Positions 31,135 through 64,000 of a stretch of DNA of 64,000 bases are shown piece by piece. The DNA is from an uncultured Bacteroidales bacterium (GTDB taxonomy: Bacteria; Bacteroidota; Bacteroidia; Bacteroidales; PWNQ01). Position numbers and translations under genes: made by a program. Below the pieces are notes generated by a model, which saw nothing but the letters and a program-made list of their open reading frames with translations, ran no database searches and had not been told where the DNA came from. The stretch covers positions 12,703-76,702 of the forward strand of contig CAYZDA010000005.1 in the NCBI GenBank assembly GCA_964477095.1, read 5' to 3'. The stretch's first letter is position 1. Every line of letters starts with the position of its first letter.

Positions 31135-31458
31135 TGTTTGATAGCAGATTGATTTTGGTACCACTGGGCTTTTGTGTGTTCCTGCAGAAGTTTTGGCATT
31201 TTTTATCTTAGAGTTTGTGCCTGAACTCACTTCCTCTGTGATCTCTGTGTCTTGGTGGGAACCGCCAATTTCGCGGATTTATAACGCCAATCAACGCGAA
31301 TTAATTAGTGCAGTTCGTGGTGGAAAATGCTGCCGCCTTGTGCGGTATGGGAAAATCTTATGGTGTTACATTCTTATTTATAAAAAATATAAATTGCTTA
31401 TTTGTTTTAATATGAGGGAAACATTTTCTAATTTTCGGCTGTCAAAAACCCAAGCTAT

Positions 31459-31992
31459 ATGAGAGTTGAACGAATGCCTGTAAAAAACGAAGAAGTAAAG
31501 GTTGCTGAGCCGGAAATCGATTTATCCCTTCTGGATGATTTGATCAGTAAATACAAGAACCGGCGTGGTAATCTGATTCCTTTACTTCAGGGGACCCAGG
31601 AACTTTATGGCTTCCTTCCCCGGAATGCTTTTCTGAAAATATCCCGCGAAACCGGTCTGGAGCTAAATGAAATGTATGGAGTGGCAACCTTTTATGCCCA
31701 GTTTCGCCTGCAGCCCGTAGGCAGGCATATCATCAAAGTGTGCCATGGTACGGCCTGTCATGTACAGAATGCCGGCGGCATTACCGATGCATTGGCAGAA
31801 GCACTTGGTGTACCCGATGGGGGTACTACCGAAGACCGGCTGTTTACCCTGGAATCTGTAGCCTGTCTTGGCTGCTGCTCGCTGGCTCCTGTAATGATGA
31901 TAGGAGAAGAAACCTATGGTAAACTTGACGGCAATAAAGCTGTCAGGGTGATCAAAGACATCAGGCTTAAGGAGCAAAAAAACGGAGGGTAA
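31459..31992 (+). CDS. NuoE/HydC-like thioredoxin-fold [2Fe-2S] subunit
   Basis: 177-aa ORF with the Cys motifs KVCHGTACHV and ACLGCCSLAPVMMI. Confidence 0.85.
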   Translation: MRVERMPVKNEEVKVAEPEIDLSLLDDLISKYKNRRGNLIPLLQGTQELYGFLPRNAFLKISRETGLELNEMYGVATFYAQFRLQPVGRHIIKVCHGTACHVQNAGGITDALAEALGVPDGGTTEDRLFTLESVACLGCCSLAPVMMIGEETYGKLDGNKAVRVIKDIRLKEQKNGG

Positions 31993-32025
31993 ACCATTTC
32001 ATTTTGTCAATCAAAACTCCCGATT

Positions 32026-33801
32026 ATGAAAAAGAAAGTTACAGTAGGCCTTGGCAGTTGCGGAATCGCGGCTGGTGCTGACAAGGTATATAAAAAGATA
32101 CAGGCCCTGAAAGAGGCGGAAAACCTTGATATTGATCTTCGAAAAACCTCCTGCGTTGGCATGTGCTACAATGAGCCGCTGGTGGAAGTGGAAGATGAAA
32201 CAGGGTATTATATGTACGGTGGTGTAGATGAGAAAAAGGCTGTACAGATCATGGAAGAGCACATTGCCCAATCAAATCCGGTTAAGGATTATGTGGTGCT
32301 TTCCGATCTTTTCGAGACCAAAGACGCGCAATATATGGAGGGGCAGGTGAAAATTGCCCTGCGAAATTGCGGATATATGGACCCGGAATCACTGCAGGAA
32401 GCAGAAGAACGTGGAGCCTATAAAGCCGTTAAAAAACTGTTGGATAATGATACCACAGCCGAAAAAGTAGTGGAGGAAATAATTAATTCAGGTCTGAGAG
32501 GCCGCGGTGGCGGCGGTTTCCCTGCCGGGCTCAAATGGAGGTTTGCTCTTCAGAATGTCTCGGATGAGAAATTCGTGATCTGCAATGCCGATGAAGGCGA
32601 TCCCGGAGCTTTTATGGACCGTTCACTGCTGGAAGGTGATCCTCACGCTGTACTGGAAGGTATGATCATAGCCGGATATGCCATTAAAGCTTCTCAGGGC
32701 GTGATCTATTGCCGCGCTGAATATCCGCTTGCCATAAAACGGCTGAATATTGCTATTGACCAGGCACGCGAAAAAGGCTACCTGGGAGAAAATATCTTCG
32801 GAAAAGAAGGTTTTAATTTTGATATTTTTGTGAAAGAAGGCGCCGGTGCCTTTGTTTGTGGTGAAGAAACCGCCCTGATGGCCTCCATTGAAGGCAAGCG
32901 CGGTATGCCTCGAAAGCGTCCGCCTTTTCCCGCCGCTTCAGGATTGTGGAAAAAACCTTCCAATATCAACAATGTGGAAACCTTTGCCAATGTACCCTGG
33001 ATCATACTGAACGGCGCTGAAAAATTTGCTTCATACGGAACTGAAAAGAGCAAGGGAACAAAGGTTTTTGCACTCACCGGTAAGATCAATAACGGCGGCC
33101 TTGTGGAAGTGCCCATGGGCATTACAATTAAGGATATTATATTTAAACTTGGCGGTGGAATTCAGAAGAATAAGGAATTTAAAGCTGTCCAGCTCGGTGG
33201 CCCCTCCGGAGGCTGCATCCCTGCTTATCTGGCAGATACAAAAGTTGATTACGATTCTGTAAATGCCACGGGTGCCATAATGGGCTCTGGAGGTATGGTG
33301 GTAATGGATGAAACCACCTGTATGGTGGACATGGCCCGGTTCTTCCTGGATTTTACCCAGGTGGAATCCTGCGGAAAATGTACCTTCTGCCGTGTGGGTA
33401 CTAAACGAATGCTTGAAATCCTTACACGTATCACAGAAGGTGAAGGAGAGGAAGGTGACATTGAAAAGCTGGAAGAACTGGCATACCAGATTAAGGATAA
33501 TTCCCTGTGCGGACTGGGGCAAACGGCTCCCAATCCTGTACTCACAACCATAAAATATTTCCGTGACGAATACGAAGCTCACATCAATCAGAAAAAATGT
33601 CCTGCTCAAAGTTGTAAAAAGCTGCTTACCTATGAAATAGATCCGGACAATTGTACGGGTTGCAGGGTTTGCGCTATTAAATGTCCTGTGGATGCCATAA
33701 CAGGCGAGAAAAAACAGGTGCATGTCATTGATCAGGACATCTGTATCCGCTGTGGCGACTGCTACAACCGGTGCAAATTTGATGCTGTTGCAGTACATTA
33801 A
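32026..33801 (+). CDS. NuoF/HydB-like NAD(H)-binding FMN flavoprotein with extra Fe-S domains
   Basis: 591-aa ORF. It carries an N-terminal thioredoxin-like 2Fe-2S domain (GLGSCGIAAG...SCVGMCYNEP), the FMN/NADH block GLRGRGGGGFPAGLKWRF, cluster N3 (ESCGKCTFCRVG) and two C-terminal 4Fe-4S motifs (CTGCRVCAIKCP, CIRCGDCYNRC). Confidence 0.85.
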   Translation: MKKKVTVGLGSCGIAAGADKVYKKIQALKEAENLDIDLRKTSCVGMCYNEPLVEVEDETGYYMYGGVDEKKAVQIMEEHIAQSNPVKDYVVLSDLFETKDAQYMEGQVKIALRNCGYMDPESLQEAEERGAYKAVKKLLDNDTTAEKVVEEIINSGLRGRGGGGFPAGLKWRFALQNVSDEKFVICNADEGDPGAFMDRSLLEGDPHAVLEGMIIAGYAIKASQGVIYCRAEYPLAIKRLNIAIDQAREKGYLGENIFGKEGFNFDIFVKEGAGAFVCGEETALMASIEGKRGMPRKRPPFPAASGLWKKPSNINNVETFANVPWIILNGAEKFASYGTEKSKGTKVFALTGKINNGGLVEVPMGITIKDIIFKLGGGIQKNKEFKAVQLGGPSGGCIPAYLADTKVDYDSVNATGAIMGSGGMVVMDETTCMVDMARFFLDFTQVESCGKCTFCRVGTKRMLEILTRITEGEGEEGDIEKLEELAYQIKDNSLCGLGQTAPNPVLTTIKYFRDEYEAHINQKKCPAQSCKKLLTYEIDPDNCTGCRVCAIKCPVDAITGEKKQVHVIDQDICIRCGDCYNRCKFDAVAVH

Positions 33802-53315: not shown

Positions 53316-53957
53316 TTACCCCATATTGATTGTTCCCAGATACACACTGTCGGAAGTATCCGAACGATTGGCTTTTGAAAAGGCCAGATACACATGAAGC
53401 TCATCGCCAGCAAAATGCTCAGGGATGAGTAGTTCGGTGCTGCAGCTATCACGTTTTTGGCCTTTGATGTTCCAGGCAGCTTCCTGCTTTGTGGGATTAA
53501 AAGCCAGTACCATGGCAATATCCGTCTTCTTTGCAGAGCCAATGCCTGAATTATCGTCCCAGCTAACCGTTATAAGCCCGGAATTATTGATCGTCGCATT
53601 TCCATTCTCCGCTACTGTGAGGTCACCATGACTAATTAATGCATGCTCATAATCAATACTAAGATTTGGTTTTTTGCCCTTAATACCATTTTTCATGATA
53701 CTTTTCATGAACTGGCTGTAAGCAGATTTCCCAGGCGGAATTCGCCGATAACCATATCTGGCAAAGGGCAGTATGACTTTGACAAATGCTACGGCTGTTG
53801 CCATTCGCCCGCGTTGGTTGAGTTGTGAGGGGCTTTTAGCATCATTGTAGTGTGCCGGGCGACTGCGCAGGTAGCTGATGCCATTCCAGCTGGATGCTAC
53901 CACGTTTCCGATTTTTCCTGATAAACCGCACCCAAAATCCGAGGTTACACGGGATTT
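53316..53957 (-). pseudogene. DUF6266-like gene lacking its start codon
   Basis: The reading frame extends upstream of the track's GTG (53903) as KSRVTSDFGCGLSGKIGNVVASSWNGISYLRS. This is the conserved DUF6266 N-terminal block, and it is preceded directly by an in-frame TAA (53958-53960) with no start codon. Confidence 0.45.
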
Positions 53958-54483
53958 TTATGCTACGATACAGAACAAATTTCATTTTGCCATACACGGG
54001 CAAACGGCTGCCGAACTCATTTACAAAAAAGCCGATGCCCGAAAAGAATTTATGGGACTTACTACATGGAAGTCGGCTCCCGAAGGACGCATACTTAAAT
54101 CAGACACTACCATTGCCAAAAACTATTTAAGAGAAGACGATATAAAAAAACTGGAACGTGCCGTGGGTGCTTTTTTTGACTATATCGAACGCATTATTGA
54201 AAACCGGAATACATTTACCATGGAACAATTTGCCGGCAGTGTGAATAAATTCCTGGATTTTAACGAATACAAAGTATTGGATGGAAAAGGACAAATATCG
54301 GCGAAACTGGTTGAACAGAAAGCTTTACAGGAATATGATAAATTTAATAAAACCCAAAAGATTGAAAGCGATTTCGATAAGATGGTAAAAGCACTGAAAG
54401 AAAAAAAACAAATGACAAATAATTTCCTCTTAGAAAATTTCAAACACCTCATTATCACACCCCAAAACGTGGAGCAGCTGTAA
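53950..54483 (+). pseudogene. RhuM family gene, C-terminal half only (5'-truncated), possibly fused to an hsdS N-terminal stub
   Basis: Homology-like sequence starts at DFYATIQNKFHFAIHGQTAAELI...GLTTWKSAPEGRILKSD..AKNYL, which is the middle of RhuM proteins (roughly 330 aa, recalled length). The last 23 codons (from 54412, MTNNFLLENFKHLIITPQNVEQL) resemble the N-terminus of Bacteroidota HsdS proteins. Confidence 0.55.
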
Positions 54484-57546: not shown

Positions 57547-57757
57547 GGGAAAAACCAAAAATATGAAACAACCCCAGTCACATTATTATTTTTCCCTGTA
57601 TTGAATGTTTTTATTAATTAGTGCTTACAGTCCGGTGAGATGTTGTATATTTATGTCTCGAATGAAAGAATAAACTTTTACAAAAGGGATTTCAAAATCT
57701 TTATAAGTTGCATAATAAATTGTTTATGCTGCAATTAAAAGCCTGGAATAAACTCTG

Positions 57758-57776
57758 AGGTCACAATTTGTGACCT
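57758..57776. repeat. 19-nt palindrome AGGTCACAATTTGTGACCT, copy 1 (ORF6N-family RSQFVT segment)
   Basis: It is a perfect palindrome and is identical to 57997-58015. In frame it reads LRSQFVTS. Confidence 0.85.
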
Positions 57777-57794
57777 CAACAACAAGCAAAAGCT

Positions 57795-58040
57795 ATGGAT
57801 GAACTACAACCTACAGAATCACTCATAACGAATAAAATCTATCGCATCCGCGGAATGCAGGTGATGGTGGATTTTGACCTGGCAGAATTGTATAGTGTTG
57901 AAAACAAGGTATTGAAACAATAAGTCAGAAGAAATATAGATAGATTCCCCAAAGATTTTTTATTTGAACTAACAAAAAGATGAATGGGATTCTCTAAGGT
58001 CACAATTTGTGACCTTAACCGGAAAGCCACTTGCTGCAAT
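57795..58040 (+). pseudogene. ORF6N domain gene, disrupted
   Basis: MDELQPTESLITNKIYRIRGMQVMVDFDLAELYSVENKVLKQ is followed by an in-frame TAA (57921-57923). VRRNIDRFPKDFLFELTK is then followed by a TGA (57981-57983). A 1-nt frame change gives DEWDSLRSQFVTLTGK, and the remaining C-terminus is missing. Confidence 0.6.
57997..58015. repeat. 19-nt palindrome AGGTCACAATTTGTGACCT, copy 2
   Basis: Identical to 57758-57776 and located inside the ORF6N pseudogene. Confidence 0.85.
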
Positions 58041-58111
58041 TTTGCTTATAAGTATTGTGGGATTGTTAAGAAGTTGTATTTTTAGGCTTCAAAACTAAAA
58101 CAACCTAAACC

Positions 58112-58996
58112 ATGGCAAGAAGACCCTCCAAATCCAAAGAAGTTGCGCAAAAAACCGTCTATGCGGCAATGAAAATCCTTAAGGAAAATGGCGGTGAGAT
58201 GACAGGAAGTGAGGTGATTGATAAGGTTAGGGAAACGGTTGAATTCTCAGACTGGGAGAAGGAGCGCTATGAAAAGACAGGCTACATCAGATGGGAGTCT
58301 ATTCTGCATTTTTACACCATTGATTGTGCTAAGGCCGGTTTTTTAAGAAAAAGCAAAGGCGTTTGGTATTTGACTGATGAAGGCGAGAAGGCAATCGATT
58401 TAGGCCCTGAAAAATTACTGGAGAAGGCGCAGCAGGCTTATAAAAAATGGAAAGCCAGGCAGGATAAGGAAAAGGATGTGGAAGGTGCCGACAACCAAAG
58501 CCAGCAGGCTAACCTTGATAAATATGAAGAAGAAGCCATTGCAGGTATCAGAAATCATTTGGCTTCAAAAAATCCCTATGAATTTCAGGATATGGTGGCA
58601 GCGCTATTGCGTGCTATGGGCTATTATACTCCGCACGTAGCTTCTCGGGGAAAAGATGGAGGTATTGATATTATTGCTTATGGTGATCCGCTAGGAACCA
58701 GGGAGCCAAGAATTAAAGTGCAGGTTAAGCACAGGCCTGATGCCTCTATTGCTGTTGATGATATCCGCCAGTTGCTCGGTTTGTTAAGCCGCTCCGGTGA
58801 TGTTGGATTATTTGTTACTTCTGGTAGATATACTTCAGAAGCAGAAAAATCAGCACGTGAATCACATAAGCATATCGAACTGATAAACTTCCAGCGTTTT
58901 ATTACGCTATGGCAAGAGCATTACAACAAGTTTGATGATGAAACCAAAAACATGCTGCCACTACAAGCCATATACTTTTTGGGAACGAATGAGTGA
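58112..58996 (+). CDS. Mrr-like restriction endonuclease (winged-helix Mrr_N + PD-(D/E)xK Mrr_cat)
   Basis: 294-aa ORF. The N-terminal wHTH-like region reads IRWESILHFYTIDCAKAGFLRKSKGVWYLTDEG. The C-terminal core reads YEFQDMVAALLRAMGY...GGIDIIAYGD...IKVQVKH. Confidence 0.75.
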   Translation: MARRPSKSKEVAQKTVYAAMKILKENGGEMTGSEVIDKVRETVEFSDWEKERYEKTGYIRWESILHFYTIDCAKAGFLRKSKGVWYLTDEGEKAIDLGPEKLLEKAQQAYKKWKARQDKEKDVEGADNQSQQANLDKYEEEAIAGIRNHLASKNPYEFQDMVAALLRAMGYYTPHVASRGKDGGIDIIAYGDPLGTREPRIKVQVKHRPDASIAVDDIRQLLGLLSRSGDVGLFVTSGRYTSEAEKSARESHKHIELINFQRFITLWQEHYNKFDDETKNMLPLQAIYFLGTNE

Positions 58997-59007
58997 GGAA
59001 ATAACAA

Positions 59008-59910
59008 TTGTATTCTATGAAATTCAACGAAGATTCAAGAGTAAAAATACCAGCTTTAATTCATTTAACAAGATTAGGGTATCAATACCTTTCTCTGAAA
59101 GAGCAAAAGTGGGATAAGGAAACAAATGTATTTACTGATATTTTTCGAGAGAGTATTGAGCGAATAAATCCAGACAACGATGATTTGGATATTGATAAAA
59201 TATATCAGGAAATAAAATTGCTTTTGGAAAATGAAGACTTGGGAAAAGCCTTTTATGAAAGGATTATTAAGCGCTCTGGAATAAAGTTGATTGATTTTGA
59301 GGATTTTGAAAATAATACATTTAATGTAGTCACTGAGTTGACTTATAAAAATGAGGATGAGGGATTTAGGCCTGATATTGTACTTTTGATTAATGGAATG
59401 CCTTTAGTGTTTCTGGAGGTCAAAAAACCAAACAATAGAGAAGGTGTAATTGCAGAGCACAACAGAATTGAAAAGAGATTTAAGAATAGGAAGTTCAGGC
59501 AATTTGTGAATATCACGCAGTTGATGGTTTTTTCAAATAATATGGAATATGATAATGAAGCAGTTAGGCCATTACAAGGAGCTTTTTATTCCTCAACAGC
59601 TTATGGCAGGCCAGTTTTTAATTATTTCCGGGAGGAAAAGCCTAAAGATTTTTCGGGAATTTTAGAACATGAAAATGATCAGTTGGAAGATTACATTTTA
59701 AAAGATAATAATCTAACTATTATTAAGCATAACCCAGAGTTTCTTACAAATAAATCTCATGATACGCCAACAAACAGATTGTCAACTTCATTGTTTTCAA
59801 AAAAGCGATTAGCGTTTTTTCTGGAGTATTCCATTGCTTATGTTAAAGACATTCGAGGATATCAAAAGCATGTGATGAGATATCCACAGTTTTTTGCAAC
59901 AAAAGCCTAA
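59008..59910 (+). pseudogene. hsdR: type I restriction enzyme HsdR, N-terminal nuclease domain only (truncated before the helicase motifs)
   Basis: 300-aa ORF with KFNEDSRVKIPALIHLTRLGYQYLS and the PD-(D/E)xK block RPDIVLLINGMPLVFLEVKK. It ends at ...MRYPQFFATKA, where the Q-motif/helicase domain should begin. Full-length HsdR proteins are about 1000 aa. Confidence 0.65.
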
Positions 59911-60641
59911 TGATAAATACCATACAAAATAAAACTTGCAATAAAAAAGTCATGTTAAAAAAATACCTCGAACAACTTGACCTTATTTGGAGTAATCCGG
60001 ATTATCAAAACAACGACTTCCTGAAAACATACATCAATCGTGGTTATACTTTTCCGGAAATAGAAAAGGCTGATTTATTATTTATTGGGTTAAATCCTGC
60101 AGGGAAAACAGAGAAAGGGGGTTCTTTTTCATATAATCTGGATCAAGCTGTAATCGATTTACCTAATTTTTATGGTCGTTACAATCAGTTGGCCAAACAA
60201 GTTGGTGCAAGTTGGACATTTACTGATATGTTTTATTTTAAAGAAACAGACAGCAAAATATTGGATACGTTCTTAAAACAATCATTGGGTGTCCGTTTTT
60301 TGGTGGAACAACTAAAAATAACCCAACACATAATAGAAGAGATAAACCCAAAGATTATTGTTGTTTTTAATGCTAAAGCAAGAATGTTTTTTGGCATAGA
60401 ACAAAACCGCATAAAGAATGAAGGTATCTGGATGGGATACAAGGCTGATAATCCAGAACTAAACGAAATACATGGCACTCCAGTAATTGAGGCTGTTCAT
60501 TCAGACTTGATTGCCGGACTACACTATCAAAAGAAGAGACCATTACCTATATTTTTTGATAGTTTCATTAGTTACCAGGCTAAATCATCTCTCGATCGCC
60601 TGGCCTGGCATATAAGGTATGCACTAAAACAATTAGCCTGA
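59910..60641 (+). CDS. uracil-DNA-glycosylase-superfamily-like protein (tentative)
   Basis: 243-aa ORF. LLFIGLNPAGK resembles UDG motif 1 (compare GINPG, GMNPG, GLAPA). INPKIIVVFNAKARMFFG resembles the conserved beta-strand/helix block of UDG folds. No clear motif 2 His. The ATG overlaps the hsdR-stub stop by 1 nt. Confidence 0.35.
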   Translation: MINTIQNKTCNKKVMLKKYLEQLDLIWSNPDYQNNDFLKTYINRGYTFPEIEKADLLFIGLNPAGKTEKGGSFSYNLDQAVIDLPNFYGRYNQLAKQVGASWTFTDMFYFKETDSKILDTFLKQSLGVRFLVEQLKITQHIIEEINPKIIVVFNAKARMFFGIEQNRIKNEGIWMGYKADNPELNEIHGTPVIEAVHSDLIAGLHYQKKRPLPIFFDSFISYQAKSSLDRLAWHIRYALKQLA

Positions 60642-60783
60642 TTTTCCAGGAAATTATGTTATTTTAGTTGGTTAATACTTATGATTTTGAGTGATAAGGT
60701 GAGCATCGAAGAAGCCCGCTAAACCGGATGGTGCAATGAATGTTGCAGCAGAAAATGAGGCTGAATAAGAAAAAAGAGCTGAG

Positions 60784-61665
60784 ATGAGCAATGAAAGCCA
60801 TTTAATATTTAGTGACGAATCTGGCTATATTGGGAATAGCCGATTTGGTGCTATTGGCGTAGTCTCTGGTTCAAAAATAAATGCAAAAACACTAAATGAA
60901 AAACTAAAATCAATATTAGATAAATATTCCAAAATTGAATTAAAATTTGCAAAGGTAAAAGGTCATAGTTCAACACTAAATGCTGTTAAATCTTTTGTTT
61001 CGCTTGGCTTGAAGTTTTGCATGCAGAAAAAAATTAAAATCCATGTTATTATTTGGGACAAGCAAGATCAGAGACACAATGTGAAAAATCGTGACGATAT
61101 TGAAAATATGAAACGCATGTATTATCACATTTTGAAAAGAACCAAATCAGATTGGTATGGGATAGATAATTGGGATTTTTATCCTGATGAATTCTCAGCT
61201 ATAGATTGGAAAAATGATGTTGTAAAGTACATTGAAAGAACTAATCTTGATAAAAAATACAATACAAATCAGGAAACGTTATTTGGGGTTATATACAAAT
61301 TTCGTTTCCCCTTTATTAAAGAGCAATGTGAATTAGACTCTAGTAAATATCCCATATTGCAATTGACTGATATATTTACTGGTATTGTGCGTTTATCCTA
61401 TGAATTAGGTGAAAAATATTTTAAGTGGCTTTCTGATGAGAAAGGTCAAAATGGATTATTCGCGATGCCAAAACAGTGCCAGGCATCAAAAAACGAAATA
61501 TGCAAATTTGGCATCCTAAAGCATTTTAAAGATGAGTGTTCTAAATATAAACTTGGTGTGAATTTTAGCCAAAATAACTATTTTAAAACGTTTAACAACA
61601 AAAAGGGAATAGTGCTATGGCTTTATAAGCCACAGGGAGATTATGATAAGGCGCCTGTTAAATAA
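60784..61665 (+). CDS. DUF3800 family protein
   Basis: 293-aa ORF. The N-terminal LIFSDESGY block and overall layout are typical of DUF3800. Confidence 0.55.
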   Translation: MSNESHLIFSDESGYIGNSRFGAIGVVSGSKINAKTLNEKLKSILDKYSKIELKFAKVKGHSSTLNAVKSFVSLGLKFCMQKKIKIHVIIWDKQDQRHNVKNRDDIENMKRMYYHILKRTKSDWYGIDNWDFYPDEFSAIDWKNDVVKYIERTNLDKKYNTNQETLFGVIYKFRFPFIKEQCELDSSKYPILQLTDIFTGIVRLSYELGEKYFKWLSDEKGQNGLFAMPKQCQASKNEICKFGILKHFKDECSKYKLGVNFSQNNYFKTFNNKKGIVLWLYKPQGDYDKAPVK

Positions 61666-61711
61666 GATTTACATAGTACAATTAAGAAAAGCAAACAAAA
61701 GAAATATTTTC

Positions 61712-62398
61712 ATGAAAAACTTTAACGTTATTTACAAGCATGGTCATTTAGTTAATAAAGAAACAGGAAAACGGATATTCTTAAAACGGGGTGGTGAGTT
61801 TAATTTACTCGGTGATGATGGACAGTTTGAAGAAAAGGATGAACTTTTTTTGGATGAGCAAATACTGGACTCTGAACAAAAAATTTATTCATTGAAAAAT
61901 AGATATTCCGACAAAGATGGATTCAAGATATTCAAATTATACGATAAAGGCGAGAGATTTTATTTTAGGGTAGGCTTATCAAAGAAAACATCAGAAAATA
62001 AAGATAAAGAATTCATTTTTGATGCTGTCTTATTAGAGGATTTATACATTCGGACAAGTAAGATTAATCGAAATAAATCCGAAAAAAAAGTTCGATGGTA
62101 TTTATGCAATTGTTATTGTGAGTCTCAGAAGTGTGTTTATGGCGACCTTCAAATGATTGAGCCTATTCGAGGGAACTCCTTAAATAATTTGTTTTCAAAC
62201 TTAGTTGCATATTATTTCCCTATGCAACGATCAACAGCTGTAAATGCATTCAAGGACTTTTATTTGGCAGCACCAATAGATAAAATAAAGGAAGATGAAA
62301 GATTTGATTGGGATTATTTTGCAAGAGATTTTAGTTATCATGGAAATCATTATCGATTAGAAAGTATTAGAAATAAGATTGCAAGTAATTTATTATGA
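61712..62398 (+). CDS. hypothetical protein, no recognisable domain
   Basis: The ORF is open from 61643, with Met at 61712 (MKNFNVIYKHG...) preferred. Its stop overlaps the next start (ATGA), which suggests translational coupling to the DUF3883 gene. Confidence 0.4.
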   Translation: MKNFNVIYKHGHLVNKETGKRIFLKRGGEFNLLGDDGQFEEKDELFLDEQILDSEQKIYSLKNRYSDKDGFKIFKLYDKGERFYFRVGLSKKTSENKDKEFIFDAVLLEDLYIRTSKINRNKSEKKVRWYLCNCYCESQKCVYGDLQMIEPIRGNSLNNLFSNLVAYYFPMQRSTAVNAFKDFYLAAPIDKIKEDERFDWDYFARDFSYHGNHYRLESIRNKIASNLL

Positions 62399-63240
62399 AC
62401 CCACCCTGGACTCCATATGAACTCCAATTAATCATTGCCGACTACTTTTCTATGTTGTTGGCGGAGTTGCGCAATGAGCCTTACAATAAGGCTTTGCACA
62501 GGCGGGCCTTGATGCAGCAAATACCTCGCTCTGCGGGTTCCATTGAGCGTAAGCATATGAATATATCTGCAGTGCTTATAAAATACGGGCGGCCATTTAT
62601 TCTGGGATATAAGCCTTATAAGAATTTTCAGCGCGACATGGAGATTGCGGTGTTGGATCATCTGGACAATCATCTGGGCTTAGACCAGGAATTTGAGTCA
62701 TTTGCCAAGACAGATATTATTATTCCGGAACAATCAATTAATTTTAATACCTGGATAGATACACCTCCCACTGATTCAATAGCTGCTGAGCCAAGCGTAG
62801 CATACCAAAGAAAAATCAGAAAGGTTGATTTTCTGGCTGCAGAACAGGCCAATCAAAAAACGGGTATGGCAGGTGAGGAGCTGGTAATGAAATATGAGAA
62901 ATGGCGATTGCAAATGGCAGGCAAAGATAATCTGGCTGATTCGGTGGAATGGGTTTCCAGAGATAAAGGTGATGGTGCCGGATTTGATATTCTTTCCAGG
63001 AATATGAACGGGACTGACCGCTATATCGAAGTAAAATCTACAAAATTGGGAAAAGTAACTCCAGTGTACGTTTCCAGAAATGAACTGGAGTTTTCCAGGG
63101 AAAAAGACCAGCATTTTCATTTATATCGCGTATTCCAAATGCGTAAAAGTCCAAAACTGTTTACTACAAGCGGACGTCTTGACCATACATTGCATTTGGA
63201 AGCTGTGAATTATGTTGGTAAATTTGGCTCACATCCCTAA
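62395..63240 (+). CDS. DUF3883 (restriction-endonuclease-fold) protein with N-terminal sensor-like domain
   Basis: 281-aa ORF. The N-terminus reads WTPYELQLIIADYFSML...YNKALHRRAL...IERKHMNISAVL...GYKP. The C-terminal PD-(D/E)xK-like core reads GEELVMKYE...GFDILSRNMNGTDRYIEVKSTK. Confidence 0.6.
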   Translation: MNPPWTPYELQLIIADYFSMLLAELRNEPYNKALHRRALMQQIPRSAGSIERKHMNISAVLIKYGRPFILGYKPYKNFQRDMEIAVLDHLDNHLGLDQEFESFAKTDIIIPEQSINFNTWIDTPPTDSIAAEPSVAYQRKIRKVDFLAAEQANQKTGMAGEELVMKYEKWRLQMAGKDNLADSVEWVSRDKGDGAGFDILSRNMNGTDRYIEVKSTKLGKVTPVYVSRNELEFSREKDQHFHLYRVFQMRKSPKLFTTSGRLDHTLHLEAVNYVGKFGSHP

Positions 63241-63249
63241 TCCATTTTA

Positions 63250-64000
63250 ATGAACTCCACCATCGACCATATTCTGAATTTAAAGCTTGGTGTGACCAGA
63301 TACGGTCCGGCACCGCATAAGCCGGTATTGTTGCTGGCAGTGGCTAAGGCTTTTGAGATGGATGAAGTGCGTGGTAACAGGCTGCGCTTGTCGGAGGAGT
63401 TGCTGCTTCATTTTTATGATCAATGGAAATCATTGGTACATACACCTCATGTACCGAATATTTCGCTACCGTTTTATCATCTGAAAAATGAAAAGGGAAA
63501 GTTCTGGGAGCTGGTTACTTACCCCGGAATAAATGTGCCGGCTACTAAAAGCAAATCCATTAAGAGCTTCAAGGCTTTGAGGGAAACGGTCATGTATGCC
63601 CGGCTGTCGGATGAACTCTATGCCATCATGATGAATCCTGTGAAACGGGAGGAGCTGAAGCTAGCCATTTTAAAGAAGTATTTCGGATTGGACCGGGAGC
63701 CTCTGGCAGAATCAAGCTGGTCGAAGTCGGTAATGTCACAGATGCTCAATGAGCCGGAGGAGAACTATGCACGCCGTGTTCGTCGGGAAATTGAGGAGCA
63801 GCATACGGATGCCAGGGAAGAGTTTGTGATGGCACGCAGTGCGAGTTTCAGCAAGGCTGTTAAACACGCCTATAACAACCAGTGTGCGGTTACCGGATTA
63901 AGAATTAGCTACAAGCAGCCTTTACTCGACGCCTGTCATATCATTCCCTTTTCGGAGAGTTTCAATGATTCGGTTCGCAATGGGATAGCGCTGAGTCCAA
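63250..64000 (+). CDS. HNH (HNH_2-type) endonuclease with N-terminal DNA-recognition-like domain, runs off the right edge
   Basis: From the ATG at 63250 the frame stays open to the window end. The N-terminus reads GPAPHKPVLLLAVAKAF...PFYHLKNEKGKFWELV. The HNH core reads CAVTGLRISYKQPLLDACHIIPFSES..NGIALSP. Confidence 0.7.
   Translation, partial: MNSTIDHILNLKLGVTRYGPAPHKPVLLLAVAKAFEMDEVRGNRLRLSEELLLHFYDQWKSLVHTPHVPNISLPFYHLKNEKGKFWELVTYPGINVPATKSKSIKSFKALRETVMYARLSDELYAIMMNPVKREELKLAILKKYFGLDREPLAESSWSKSVMSQMLNEPEENYARRVRREIEEQHTDAREEFVMARSASFSKAVKHAYNNQCAVTGLRISYKQPLLDACHIIPFSESFNDSVRNGIALSP

Follow-up and report, generated by a model that had tools for sequence, protein, structure and literature searches.

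Introduction

Several described systems share features with the locus analyzed here. Brig1, Brig2 and Brig3 are defence glycosylases with the fold of uracil-DNA glycosylases (UDG) that are embedded beside BREX or restriction-modification (R-M) systems and excise phage-specific modified pyrimidines (PMC11078745; 10.1101/2025.10.29.685425; 10.64898/2026.02.25.707755). DUF3800 proteins, which combine an RNase H-like fold with DE and QxxD motifs, occur as effectors of type VII retrons and as Cas12a2-associated proteins (PMC7736814, PMC10910872), and the family is known for its association with many different non-coding RNA motifs. Most proteins with a sulfur-binding domain (SBD) have a two-domain architecture of SBD plus HNH (PMC10602919). 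We analyzed five genes, g3 to g7, that lie at the end of a stretch of 64,000 nucleotides (nt) from an uncultured Bacteroidales bacterium (GenBank assembly GCA_964477095.1, contig CAYZDA010000005.1, positions 12,703 to 76,702 of the forward strand), the whole of which is referred to as the window. The original prediction, made from the sequence, was that these genes form one undescribed defence module. Our data make it highly probable that the region is instead a mosaic defence island in which independent genes have accumulated head to tail, not one co-evolved system.

Layout of the locus and co-occurrence of its genes

All five predicted open reading frames (ORFs) were found co-directionally on the + strand, and their spacing was verified as 142, 46, -4 (an ATGA overlap) and 9 nt. 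The ORF of g3 proved real, but the start originally assigned to it (59910) lies in a remnant of hsdS; judged by sequence, the true start is almost certainly the ATG at 59952 (MLKKY...), as in all 15 homologues. Each gene was used as an anchor and the surroundings of its relatives were inspected, which yielded 123 related loci in total. Among them, L001 is a public 8.1-kb contig that is 99.98% identical to window positions 58031-64000 and reaches 2.1 kb beyond; in this contig g7 is complete with 315 residues (aa; L001 5220-6167), and in the window it would end at about 64197. The features of the locus are as follows.

58112-58996, + strand: Mrr-type type IV restriction endonuclease (Pfam Mrr_cat 1.2e-23, Mrr_N 2.8e-12; GC 43%)
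59008-59910, + strand: hsdR' stub, N-terminal 300 codons, nuclease domain only (Pfam HSDR_N 1.7e-29)
59896-59907, + strand: deletion junction (alignment to the L010 hsdR and hsdS tail)
59908-59951, + strand: hsdS 3' tail remnant and hsdS-g3 spacer (alignment to L008/L010 upstream of g3)
59952-60641, + strand: g3, 229 aa, UDG-superfamily fold, predicted DNA glycosylase (AlphaFold2 and Foldseek)
60784-61665, + strand: g4, 293 aa, DUF3800, predicted RNase H-like nuclease (Pfam DUF3800)
61712-62398, + strand: g5, 228 aa, unannotated family (homologue searches, AlphaFold2)
62395-63240, + strand: g6, 281 aa, PDC-S36, NOV_C/DUF3883 PD-(D/E)xK core (PADLOC, Pfam)
63250-64000, + strand: g7, SBD-HNH endonuclease, cut by the window end (PDB sequence match, HNH_2)
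L001 6382-8063, past the window end and after g7: HipA_2 kinase-like gene (273 aa) overlapping a 287-aa gene without a Pfam domain

An all-versus-all screen of the 123 loci revealed that more than one of g3, g4, g5 and g6 is held only by L001 and L007. Both are copies of the element in the window, at 99.98-100% identity, and therefore do not count as independent evidence. The g6 context sample consisted of 80 species-level genome loci with flanks of 10 kb on either side, and no relative of g3, g4 or g5 was detected in these by tblastn and profile hidden Markov models. Similarly, g3, g4, g6 and g7 were absent from the six independent g5 contexts, g5, g6 and g7 were absent from the five independent g3 contexts, and the loci of g4 homologues (archaeal plasmids and a Thermomicrobium defence locus) lacked the other genes. 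The sole recurrent pairing was that of g6 with a g7-like HNH gene, found in seven of 81 loci and adjacent in about four (~5% of g6 loci); since its arrangements differ (tandem upstream, tandem downstream or convergent), we read it as island co-localisation rather than an operon. The closest relative of g6, in L093 (84% protein and 80% DNA identity), has an unrelated 497-aa gene in the place of g5 and retains merely a 152-nt fragment of g7. Base composition is uneven as well, with a GC content of 43% for Mrr, 30-35% for hsdR', g3, g4 and g5, 42% for g6, 49% for g7 and 29-32% for the HipA_2 pair.

Gene content, folds, motifs, the deletion junction described below and this absence of co-occurrence are what the analysis shows. 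At least four blocks, each acquired independently, make up the island: Mrr; a collapsed hsdRMS-g3 operon; g4 and g5, which have other neighbours elsewhere; and g6 and g7, followed by the HipA_2 pair. The proposed single five-gene module was not borne out, because its genes do not co-occur elsewhere and available tools assign two of them: PADLOC places g6 in the candidate family PDC-S36, and g7 has the SBD-HNH type IV architecture. As a fallback, a stack of independent type IV enzymes had been suggested. This reading is essentially right, with three refinements: g3, together with the hsdR stub, is what remains of a four-gene type I R-M operon; g4, as a DUF3800 protein of the RNase H-like kind, is no type IV enzyme; and g5 is an orphan that elsewhere accompanies type IIG R-M genes. 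The enzymatic activities and anti-phage roles that we infer for all genes would make the island one enriched in enzymes against modified foreign DNA, with Mrr upstream and the HipA_2 pair downstream, each working alone.

Deletion of a type I R-M system upstream of g3

The hsdR stub scored 82.6 bits against TIGR00348 (cut-off 284) and breaks off where the helicase domain begins (…RYPQFFATKA*). The first 300 residues of HsdR from L010 and L012 (full lengths 1024 and 1031 aa) share 67% and 61% identity with it, respectively, and the identities of g3 to its counterparts in the same two loci run parallel (67% and 58%), which argues that stub and g3 were inherited together. Window positions 59017-59907 aligned to hsdR at L010 363-1253, while 59904-60635 aligned to L010 7987-8715, which comprises the last ~45 nt of hsdS and g3. 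Both parental sites carry the sequence GCAnCAnAGCC, of which a single copy is present in the window at 59896-59907 as a microhomology of 12 nt; it reads GCAACAAAAGCC in hsdR (codon ~297-300) and GCAGCAGAGCC or GCAGCGGAGCC at the hsdS 3' end of the relatives (the 'MAAEP' tail). The stub and g3 of the window are an hsdR-hsdM-hsdS-g3 operon after internal deletion, and the junction is the signature of a microhomology-mediated deletion. Such an event between short homologous sequences would have taken hsdR from codon 301 to its end, all of hsdM, and hsdS except for its last ~13 codons.

When the window was searched by tblastn with the three Hsd proteins of L010 and L012, neither hsdM nor hsdS nor any additional part of hsdR was found. 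With most of hsdR, hsdM and nearly all of hsdS removed by the deletion, the R-M system is dead and g3 is intact. The alternative that the five genes were inserted into hsdR was also considered and rejected, as hsdR codon 300 is followed at the junction by the hsdS tail and then g3, which is their native order, and no hsd-like sequence occurs within the next 2 kb. Homology to L008 stops ~57 nt past the stop codon of g3, and g4 therefore begins a different block.

Genomic context and relatives of g3

The g3 family is rare, with 16 homologue clusters among 5.8 billion proteins. Close homologues (58-85% identity) end a type I R-M operon in five of five independent contexts, the arrangements of which are given below.

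L010 and L011: hsdR, IS200-like Y1 transposase gene, hsdM, hsdS, 10-nt gap, g3
L012: hsdR, hsdM, hsdS, 5-nt gap, g3
L008 and L009: hsdS-derived ORF, 164-aa gene, g3
L122: hsdS, inserted PDC-M04 pair (DUF3800 and 171 aa), g3

The pair in L122 lies at positions 766-2003 between hsdS and the g3 homologue and consists of a DUF3800 protein of 240 aa and its 171-aa partner (PADLOC PDC-M04; 3.8e-86 and 1.5e-63). In L008, the ORF at 127-1011 upstream of the g3 homologue starts as an HsdS C-terminal region (LRDWLLPMLMNGQVSV) and continues into a domain (LGHLKLQKLIYLCQ) that we take to resemble DUF4065/Panacea. This ORF may be an hsdS fusion that marks another insertion at the hsdS-g3 junction.

A wider g3-like family was present in metagenomes (L094-L115, e.g. 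L104 8506-10672 and L105 3359-5889) with 30-35% identity and the motif GINPSF. These distant genes form a two-gene cassette with a protein of 471-596 aa, the C-terminal ~140 residues of which also match the g3 profile, so that the cassette may represent a paralogous pair. In the L105 lineage the cassette is located immediately upstream of a type I R-M system (hsdM-hsdS-...-hsdR). A further relative (WP_013921734.1, 256 aa, g3 profile 1.7e-18, motif GINPS) is encoded at 31394-32164 of the Runella slithyformis plasmid pRUNSL03 (L123), 700 nt downstream of a type II R-M pair of Dcm and an MvaI/BcnI-family enzyme.

Fold, motifs and proposed role of g3

No Pfam, PADLOC or NCBIfam model matched g3, and sequence searches against the PDB found nothing. 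The AlphaFold2 model built on the 16-sequence alignment reached a pLDDT of 79 and a pTM of 0.82. It shows an alpha/beta fold around a central parallel sheet that superposes on solved UDGs, and its top 50 Foldseek matches in the PDB all belong to the UDG superfamily (family 4 UDG, UdgX, TDG and SMUG1), with a best E-value of 2.2e-4 at a probability of 1.0 and TM-scores of 0.4-0.56 (best 0.48/0.56). The family 4 UDG matches come from Thermotoga, Thermus and Sulfolobus. A UDG-superfamily-like protein had been guessed from motifs, and the predicted structure bears this out. Motif A (LLFIGLNPAG) follows directly after strand 42-46, with G46, L47, N48 and P49 invariant in the 16 sequences, and is kept as G[IF]NPS in relatives of ~30% identity. 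D92-x-F-Y-F and V-V-F-N140 are likewise invariant and persist in these relatives. We take GLNP to be the Asn-type motif A of MUG/TDG/SMUG1. The conserved PIFFDSFIS after strand 191-202, a candidate for motif B (the H/N-P-S-type loop after beta-4), is modelled with low pLDDT (52-75) and contains neither a His nor an Asn-Pro-Ser. There are no cysteines at all in g3, and hence none of the four [4Fe-4S]-binding Cys of family 4 UDGs, so that g3 does not belong to these Fe-S enzymes.

The relationship to Brig1 was examined by hmmsearch of the Brig1 sequence, taken from the supplement of its paper, with the g3 profile and the wider g3-like profile. The scores were -3.3 and -1.1 bits, respectively, and the GLNP motif alone (9-14 residues) aligned. 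As this comparison was not significant, g3 falls outside the Brig1 family.

The conserved residues fit an active glycosylase. By analogy with the precedents of Brig1, Brig2 and Brig3, and on the structural model, the most likely role of g3 is that of a defence glycosylase which supplements its type I R-M system with a layer of modified-base excision. It would be a monofunctional DNA glycosylase that flips out and excises a modified base of incoming phage DNA, and the abasic sites left behind would block replication. In intact operons it would serve as an additional line of defence against phages that evade type I restriction through their modified bases. That g3 stays intact after the loss of the R-M genes suggests that it can act alone. 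We advance tentatively, as somewhat less than an even chance, the fuller proposal that g3 represents a new family of defence glycosylases which is the built-in fourth component of an hsdR-hsdM-hsdS-udg operon lineage, equips the R-M system with a base-excision arm for phages that evade restriction by hypermodified bases, and remains useful alone after R-M deletion.

It is unlikely that g3 has no part in defence and is instead a UDG-like housekeeping or repair enzyme, or a catalytically dead DNA-binding accessory of type I R-M such as a regulator. The prevalence of repair enzymes in the UDG superfamily would be in keeping with such a role, as would the lack of a confident motif B in g3, its modest TM-scores and the missing sequence-level link to Brig1. 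Against it stand the great rarity of the family, its patchy distribution and low GC content, and the strict 3'-end position in type I R-M operons; distant relatives also adjoin type I and type II R-M genes. The invariant catalytic-type Asn of GLNP, the aromatic FYF and the Asn of VVFN speak against this reading as well.

The nuclease g6 and its upstream gene g5

The g6 protein matched PADLOC PDC-S36 over nearly its entire length (1.2e-95; residues 3-277 of 281 on profile positions 5-279 of 280). A DUF3883 nuclease had been called here from its motif (GFDILS...IEVKSTK), which is present and accompanied by a Pfam NOV_C/DUF3883 match of 1.2e-23. The catalytic-core residues D198, E212 and K214 are invariant in the homologue alignment, and the N-terminal domain is of no recognised type. 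Among the 1779 homologues, the neighbours of the 80 sampled loci (L013-L092) vary: a C5 DNA methyltransferase (PF00145) is the immediate neighbour in 13 and Vsr in two, a same-strand gene ends within 20 nt upstream in 14, a Response_reg_2 protein of 530-575 aa lies directly upstream in six, and in 19 the 400 nt upstream are free of ORFs. C5 DNA methyltransferases and Vsr being the commonest neighbours, these data suggest that part of the PDC-S36 family acts as the nuclease of 5-methylcytosine (m5C) type II R-M pairs. No C5 methyltransferase was found near g6 within the 64 kb of the window, where the copy is solitary and would function as a stand-alone PDC-S36 PD-(D/E)xK nuclease.

Roughly 48 close homologues and 212 clusters at 50% identity were found for g5. 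Its AlphaFold2 model (pLDDT 84) had best Foldseek E-values of 0.4 (PDB) and 0.12 (BFVD), and no match to it was obtained in Pfam, PADLOC, NCBIfam, PHROGs or PDB sequences, in agreement with the earlier impression that it has no recognisable domain. Four longer homologues carry N-terminal extensions without a Pfam domain, and thus give no clue from fusions. In four of six independent contexts (L002, L003/L004, L118/L119 and L121) g5 follows a large type IIG restriction endonuclease-methyltransferase (REase-MTase; PADLOC REase_MTase_IIG 6e-258), with gaps down to 4 nt. In most cases an HKD-Snf2 helicase gene is present too, often upstream. A phage origin of g5 was rejected, as no relative was found in 2.9 million viral contigs, phage and plasmid records, or BFVD. 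Our guess is that g5 is a small defence gene of type IIG loci, either an accessory or independent, that is stranded in the window, i.e. a small protein that would normally ride behind type IIG restriction-methylase genes and has been separated from them here. The family could be an undescribed accessory of type IIG REase-MTase/HKD-Snf2 systems, and we flag it as an orphan-fold family with a link to type IIG systems.

The ATGA overlap of 4 nt hints that g5 and g6 are translationally coupled and raises the question of a local two- or three-gene operon, perhaps including g7, in which g5 modulates g6 as an inhibitor, antitoxin or specificity factor. We consider this improbable. The 14 of 80 g6 homologues with a tightly coupled upstream gene, including the Response_reg_2 protein in six loci, and the 497-aa gene in L093 imply that the g6 family tolerates, or likes, a variable upstream partner. 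The g5 family, however, is absent from all 81 other g6 loci and the g6 family from all other g5 loci, and elsewhere g5 is found behind type IIG R-M genes. The GC content at third codon positions of the two overlapping genes, 25% for g5 versus 41% for g6 (16 points apart), also speaks for a recent juxtaposition.

The SBD-HNH enzyme g7

The N-terminus of g7 matched PDB 8h0l (SBDHga) in phmmer with an E-value of 6.5e-9, and the HNH part matched TagI (6ghs). The sulfur cavity of SBDHga is formed by H25, K26, L75, P76 and H79 (PMC10602919). These five residues align to H23, K24, L73, P74 and H77 of g7, and all are conserved. Both the HNH core and a recognition domain at the N-terminus of the nucleases had been foreseen, and g7 provides them: its N-terminus is an SBD, and the HNH is complete (HNH_2 1.4e-6 on the truncated protein, PADLOC HNH 1.6e-21 on the full length) with the motifs CAVTG...DACHIIPF...NGIALSP (DACHIIPF...NGIALSPTFHRAFD). 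The score against NCBIfam NF045808 (PT-DNA_restrict) was 91.2 bits, below the cut-off of 180, with residues 15-312 aligned to positions 14-280 of 284. By its sequence g7 is a distant member of the SBD-HNH class of phosphorothioate-dependent type IV enzymes, and because all five sulfur-cavity residues are intact, its own activity as a type IV nuclease probably depends on phosphorothioate. It would bind the sulfur of phosphorothioated DNA via the SBD and then cut with the HNH domain.

The DUF3800 protein g4

The DUF3800 assignment of g4 was confirmed by Pfam (PF12686) at 27.5 bits against a cut-off of 21 (E-value 5.8e-6), and the protein carries an N-terminal DE motif (FSDESGY) and a C-terminal QxxD motif (LQLTDIF). 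Full-length homologues with 27-32% identity are encoded in unrelated contexts on the Methanothermobacter plasmids pFZ1/pFV1 and the Thermomicrobium roseum megaplasmid. Neither g4 nor g6 showed a sequence link to solved structures. With PADLOC, no match to g4 or g5 was obtained at E <= 0.1, including the PDC-M04A and PDC-M04B profiles. We propose that g4 would act as a stand-alone DUF3800 RNase H-like nuclease.

Two further candidates were tried for g4 and rejected. A structured RNA beside the gene, as in the DUF3800 motifs of Weinberg, was not supported by Rfam (E <= 1), which gave no relevant match in L001 and none in L116/L117, and the 142-nt spacer upstream of g4 folds no better than shuffled sequences (z = -1.75). 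An analogue of the PDC-M04 pair composed of g4 and g5 was dismissed as there is no profile or BLAST similarity and g5 occurs without DUF3800 in six of six other contexts.

Flanking genes and repeats

The Mrr protein upstream (58112-58996) matched PADLOC PDC-S02 (2.6e-44), and its Pfam Mrr_N and Mrr_cat domains agree with the Mrr-like type IV neighbour that had been noted. Past g7, the HipA_2 and 287-aa genes gave weak matches to the PADLOC candidate pair PDC-M66A/B (2.5e-10 and 3.3e-4). Just upstream of Mrr, two near-identical palindromic segments of 28 nt (57753-57780 and 57992-58019, 239 nt apart, core GGTCACAATTTGTGACC) sit in stop-interrupted ORF6N/KilA-N-like gene fragments; they look more like duplicated pseudogene pieces than operators. 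A search for cassette-boundary repeats around the island revealed nothing beyond this repeat. Scans for promoters and terminators gave counts at chance level, the sigma-70 consensus being unsuited to Bacteroidota. RhuM-family genes are frequently embedded in type I R-M loci. The ORF at 53878-54483, ~4 kb upstream, is presumably RhuM-like (FHFAIHGQTAAELIYKKADA) and for that reason may be another relic of defence-island turnover.

Weighing of independence against cooperation

A number of observations weigh against our interpretation of the locus as independent genes that include a defence glycosylase. Two different DUF3800 genes adjoin genes of the g3 family, since g4 follows g3 in the window and the PDC-M04 pair precedes the homologue in L122, and this adjacency could hint at a non-random link; the presence of DUF3800 genes beside g3 in two loci is either a coincidence or the result of a common insertion hotspot. 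In a few loci (L016 and L067), a complete g7-like gene is found directly beside the g6 homologue. As g3 to g7 are co-directional and tightly packed, with the overlap of g5 and g6, they are probably co-transcribed here, and some local functional coupling among the island genes may exist. The context samples are small, with five lineages for g3 and six for g5. For g3, no significant sequence similarity to any characterised glycosylase was found, its evidence being fold and motif.

That g3 to g7, or g4 to g7, form a lineage-specific multi-gene system of cooperating sensors and nucleases is very improbable: beyond the packing on one strand, with short gaps and the ATGA overlap, it could draw on the DNA-acting folds of three of the genes and on the identical arrangement in two independent sequencing runs (L001 and L007), but these are copies of one element, g3, g4, g5 and g6 are never together elsewhere among the 123 loci, in the closest relative of g6, g7 has been lost and g5 was never present, composition is mosaic, and g3 demonstrably comes from another operon.

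With the mosaic island as the preferred reading, the locus reveals no new multi-gene immune system and illustrates cleanly how defence-island genes that are closely packed in one direction can give the impression of an operon. The candidate that g3 adds to the newly recognised antiviral DNA glycosylases comes from a context not reported before, as it occupies the final position in type I R-M operons of Bacteroidota-like genomes. Should g3 be active, it would be a new modified-base-specific glycosylase for epigenetic tools.

Comparison with known systems

Compared with type I R-M systems, the stub represents a genuine N-terminal nuclease domain of HsdR, 61-67% identical to HsdR of the g3-carrying operons, but with 300 hsdR codons and neither hsdM nor hsdS the window cannot work as R-M. 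The intact relatives also differ from canonical type I systems, in that they have g3 as a fourth gene. Like the known DUF3800 proteins (the retron type VII effector, the Cas12a2-associated TPR-DUF3800 and PDC-M04A), g4 passes the Pfam threshold and has the DE and QxxD motifs; unlike in these systems, there is no reverse transcriptase, Cas12 or PDC-M04B partner near it. PDC-S36, for which no paper was found in the literature, is a computational candidate only. The g6 protein matches its model end to end, but does not share the neighbouring C5 DNA methyltransferase of many homologues. With its N-terminal SBD and C-terminal HNH, g7 resembles the SBD-HNH enzymes (the SprMcrA, ScoMcrA and EcoWI class; SBDHga 8H0L), from which it differs by a score below the PT-DNA_restrict cut-off and the lack of an SRA domain, its phosphorothioate dependence being a prediction.

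The closest parallel for g3 is provided by the Brig enzymes. The g3 family is distinct from these and so far limited to Bacteroidota-like metagenome contigs, and its members are the last genes of type I R-M operons and are not linked to BREX or integrons. On the other hand, g3 is a small single-domain protein as the Brig enzymes are, shares with Brig1 (LGLNPG) the motif A (L/I)GLNP(G/A), and has a predicted UDG-superfamily fold for which family 4 UDGs are the nearest solved structures, as was reported for Brig1 (PMC11078745). Both are encoded in or beside a DNA-targeting defence system, BREX in the case of Brig1 and type I R-M in the case of g3, and if g3 is active, classical R-M would recruit base-excision enzymes as a second layer in the same way as BREX does with Brig1.

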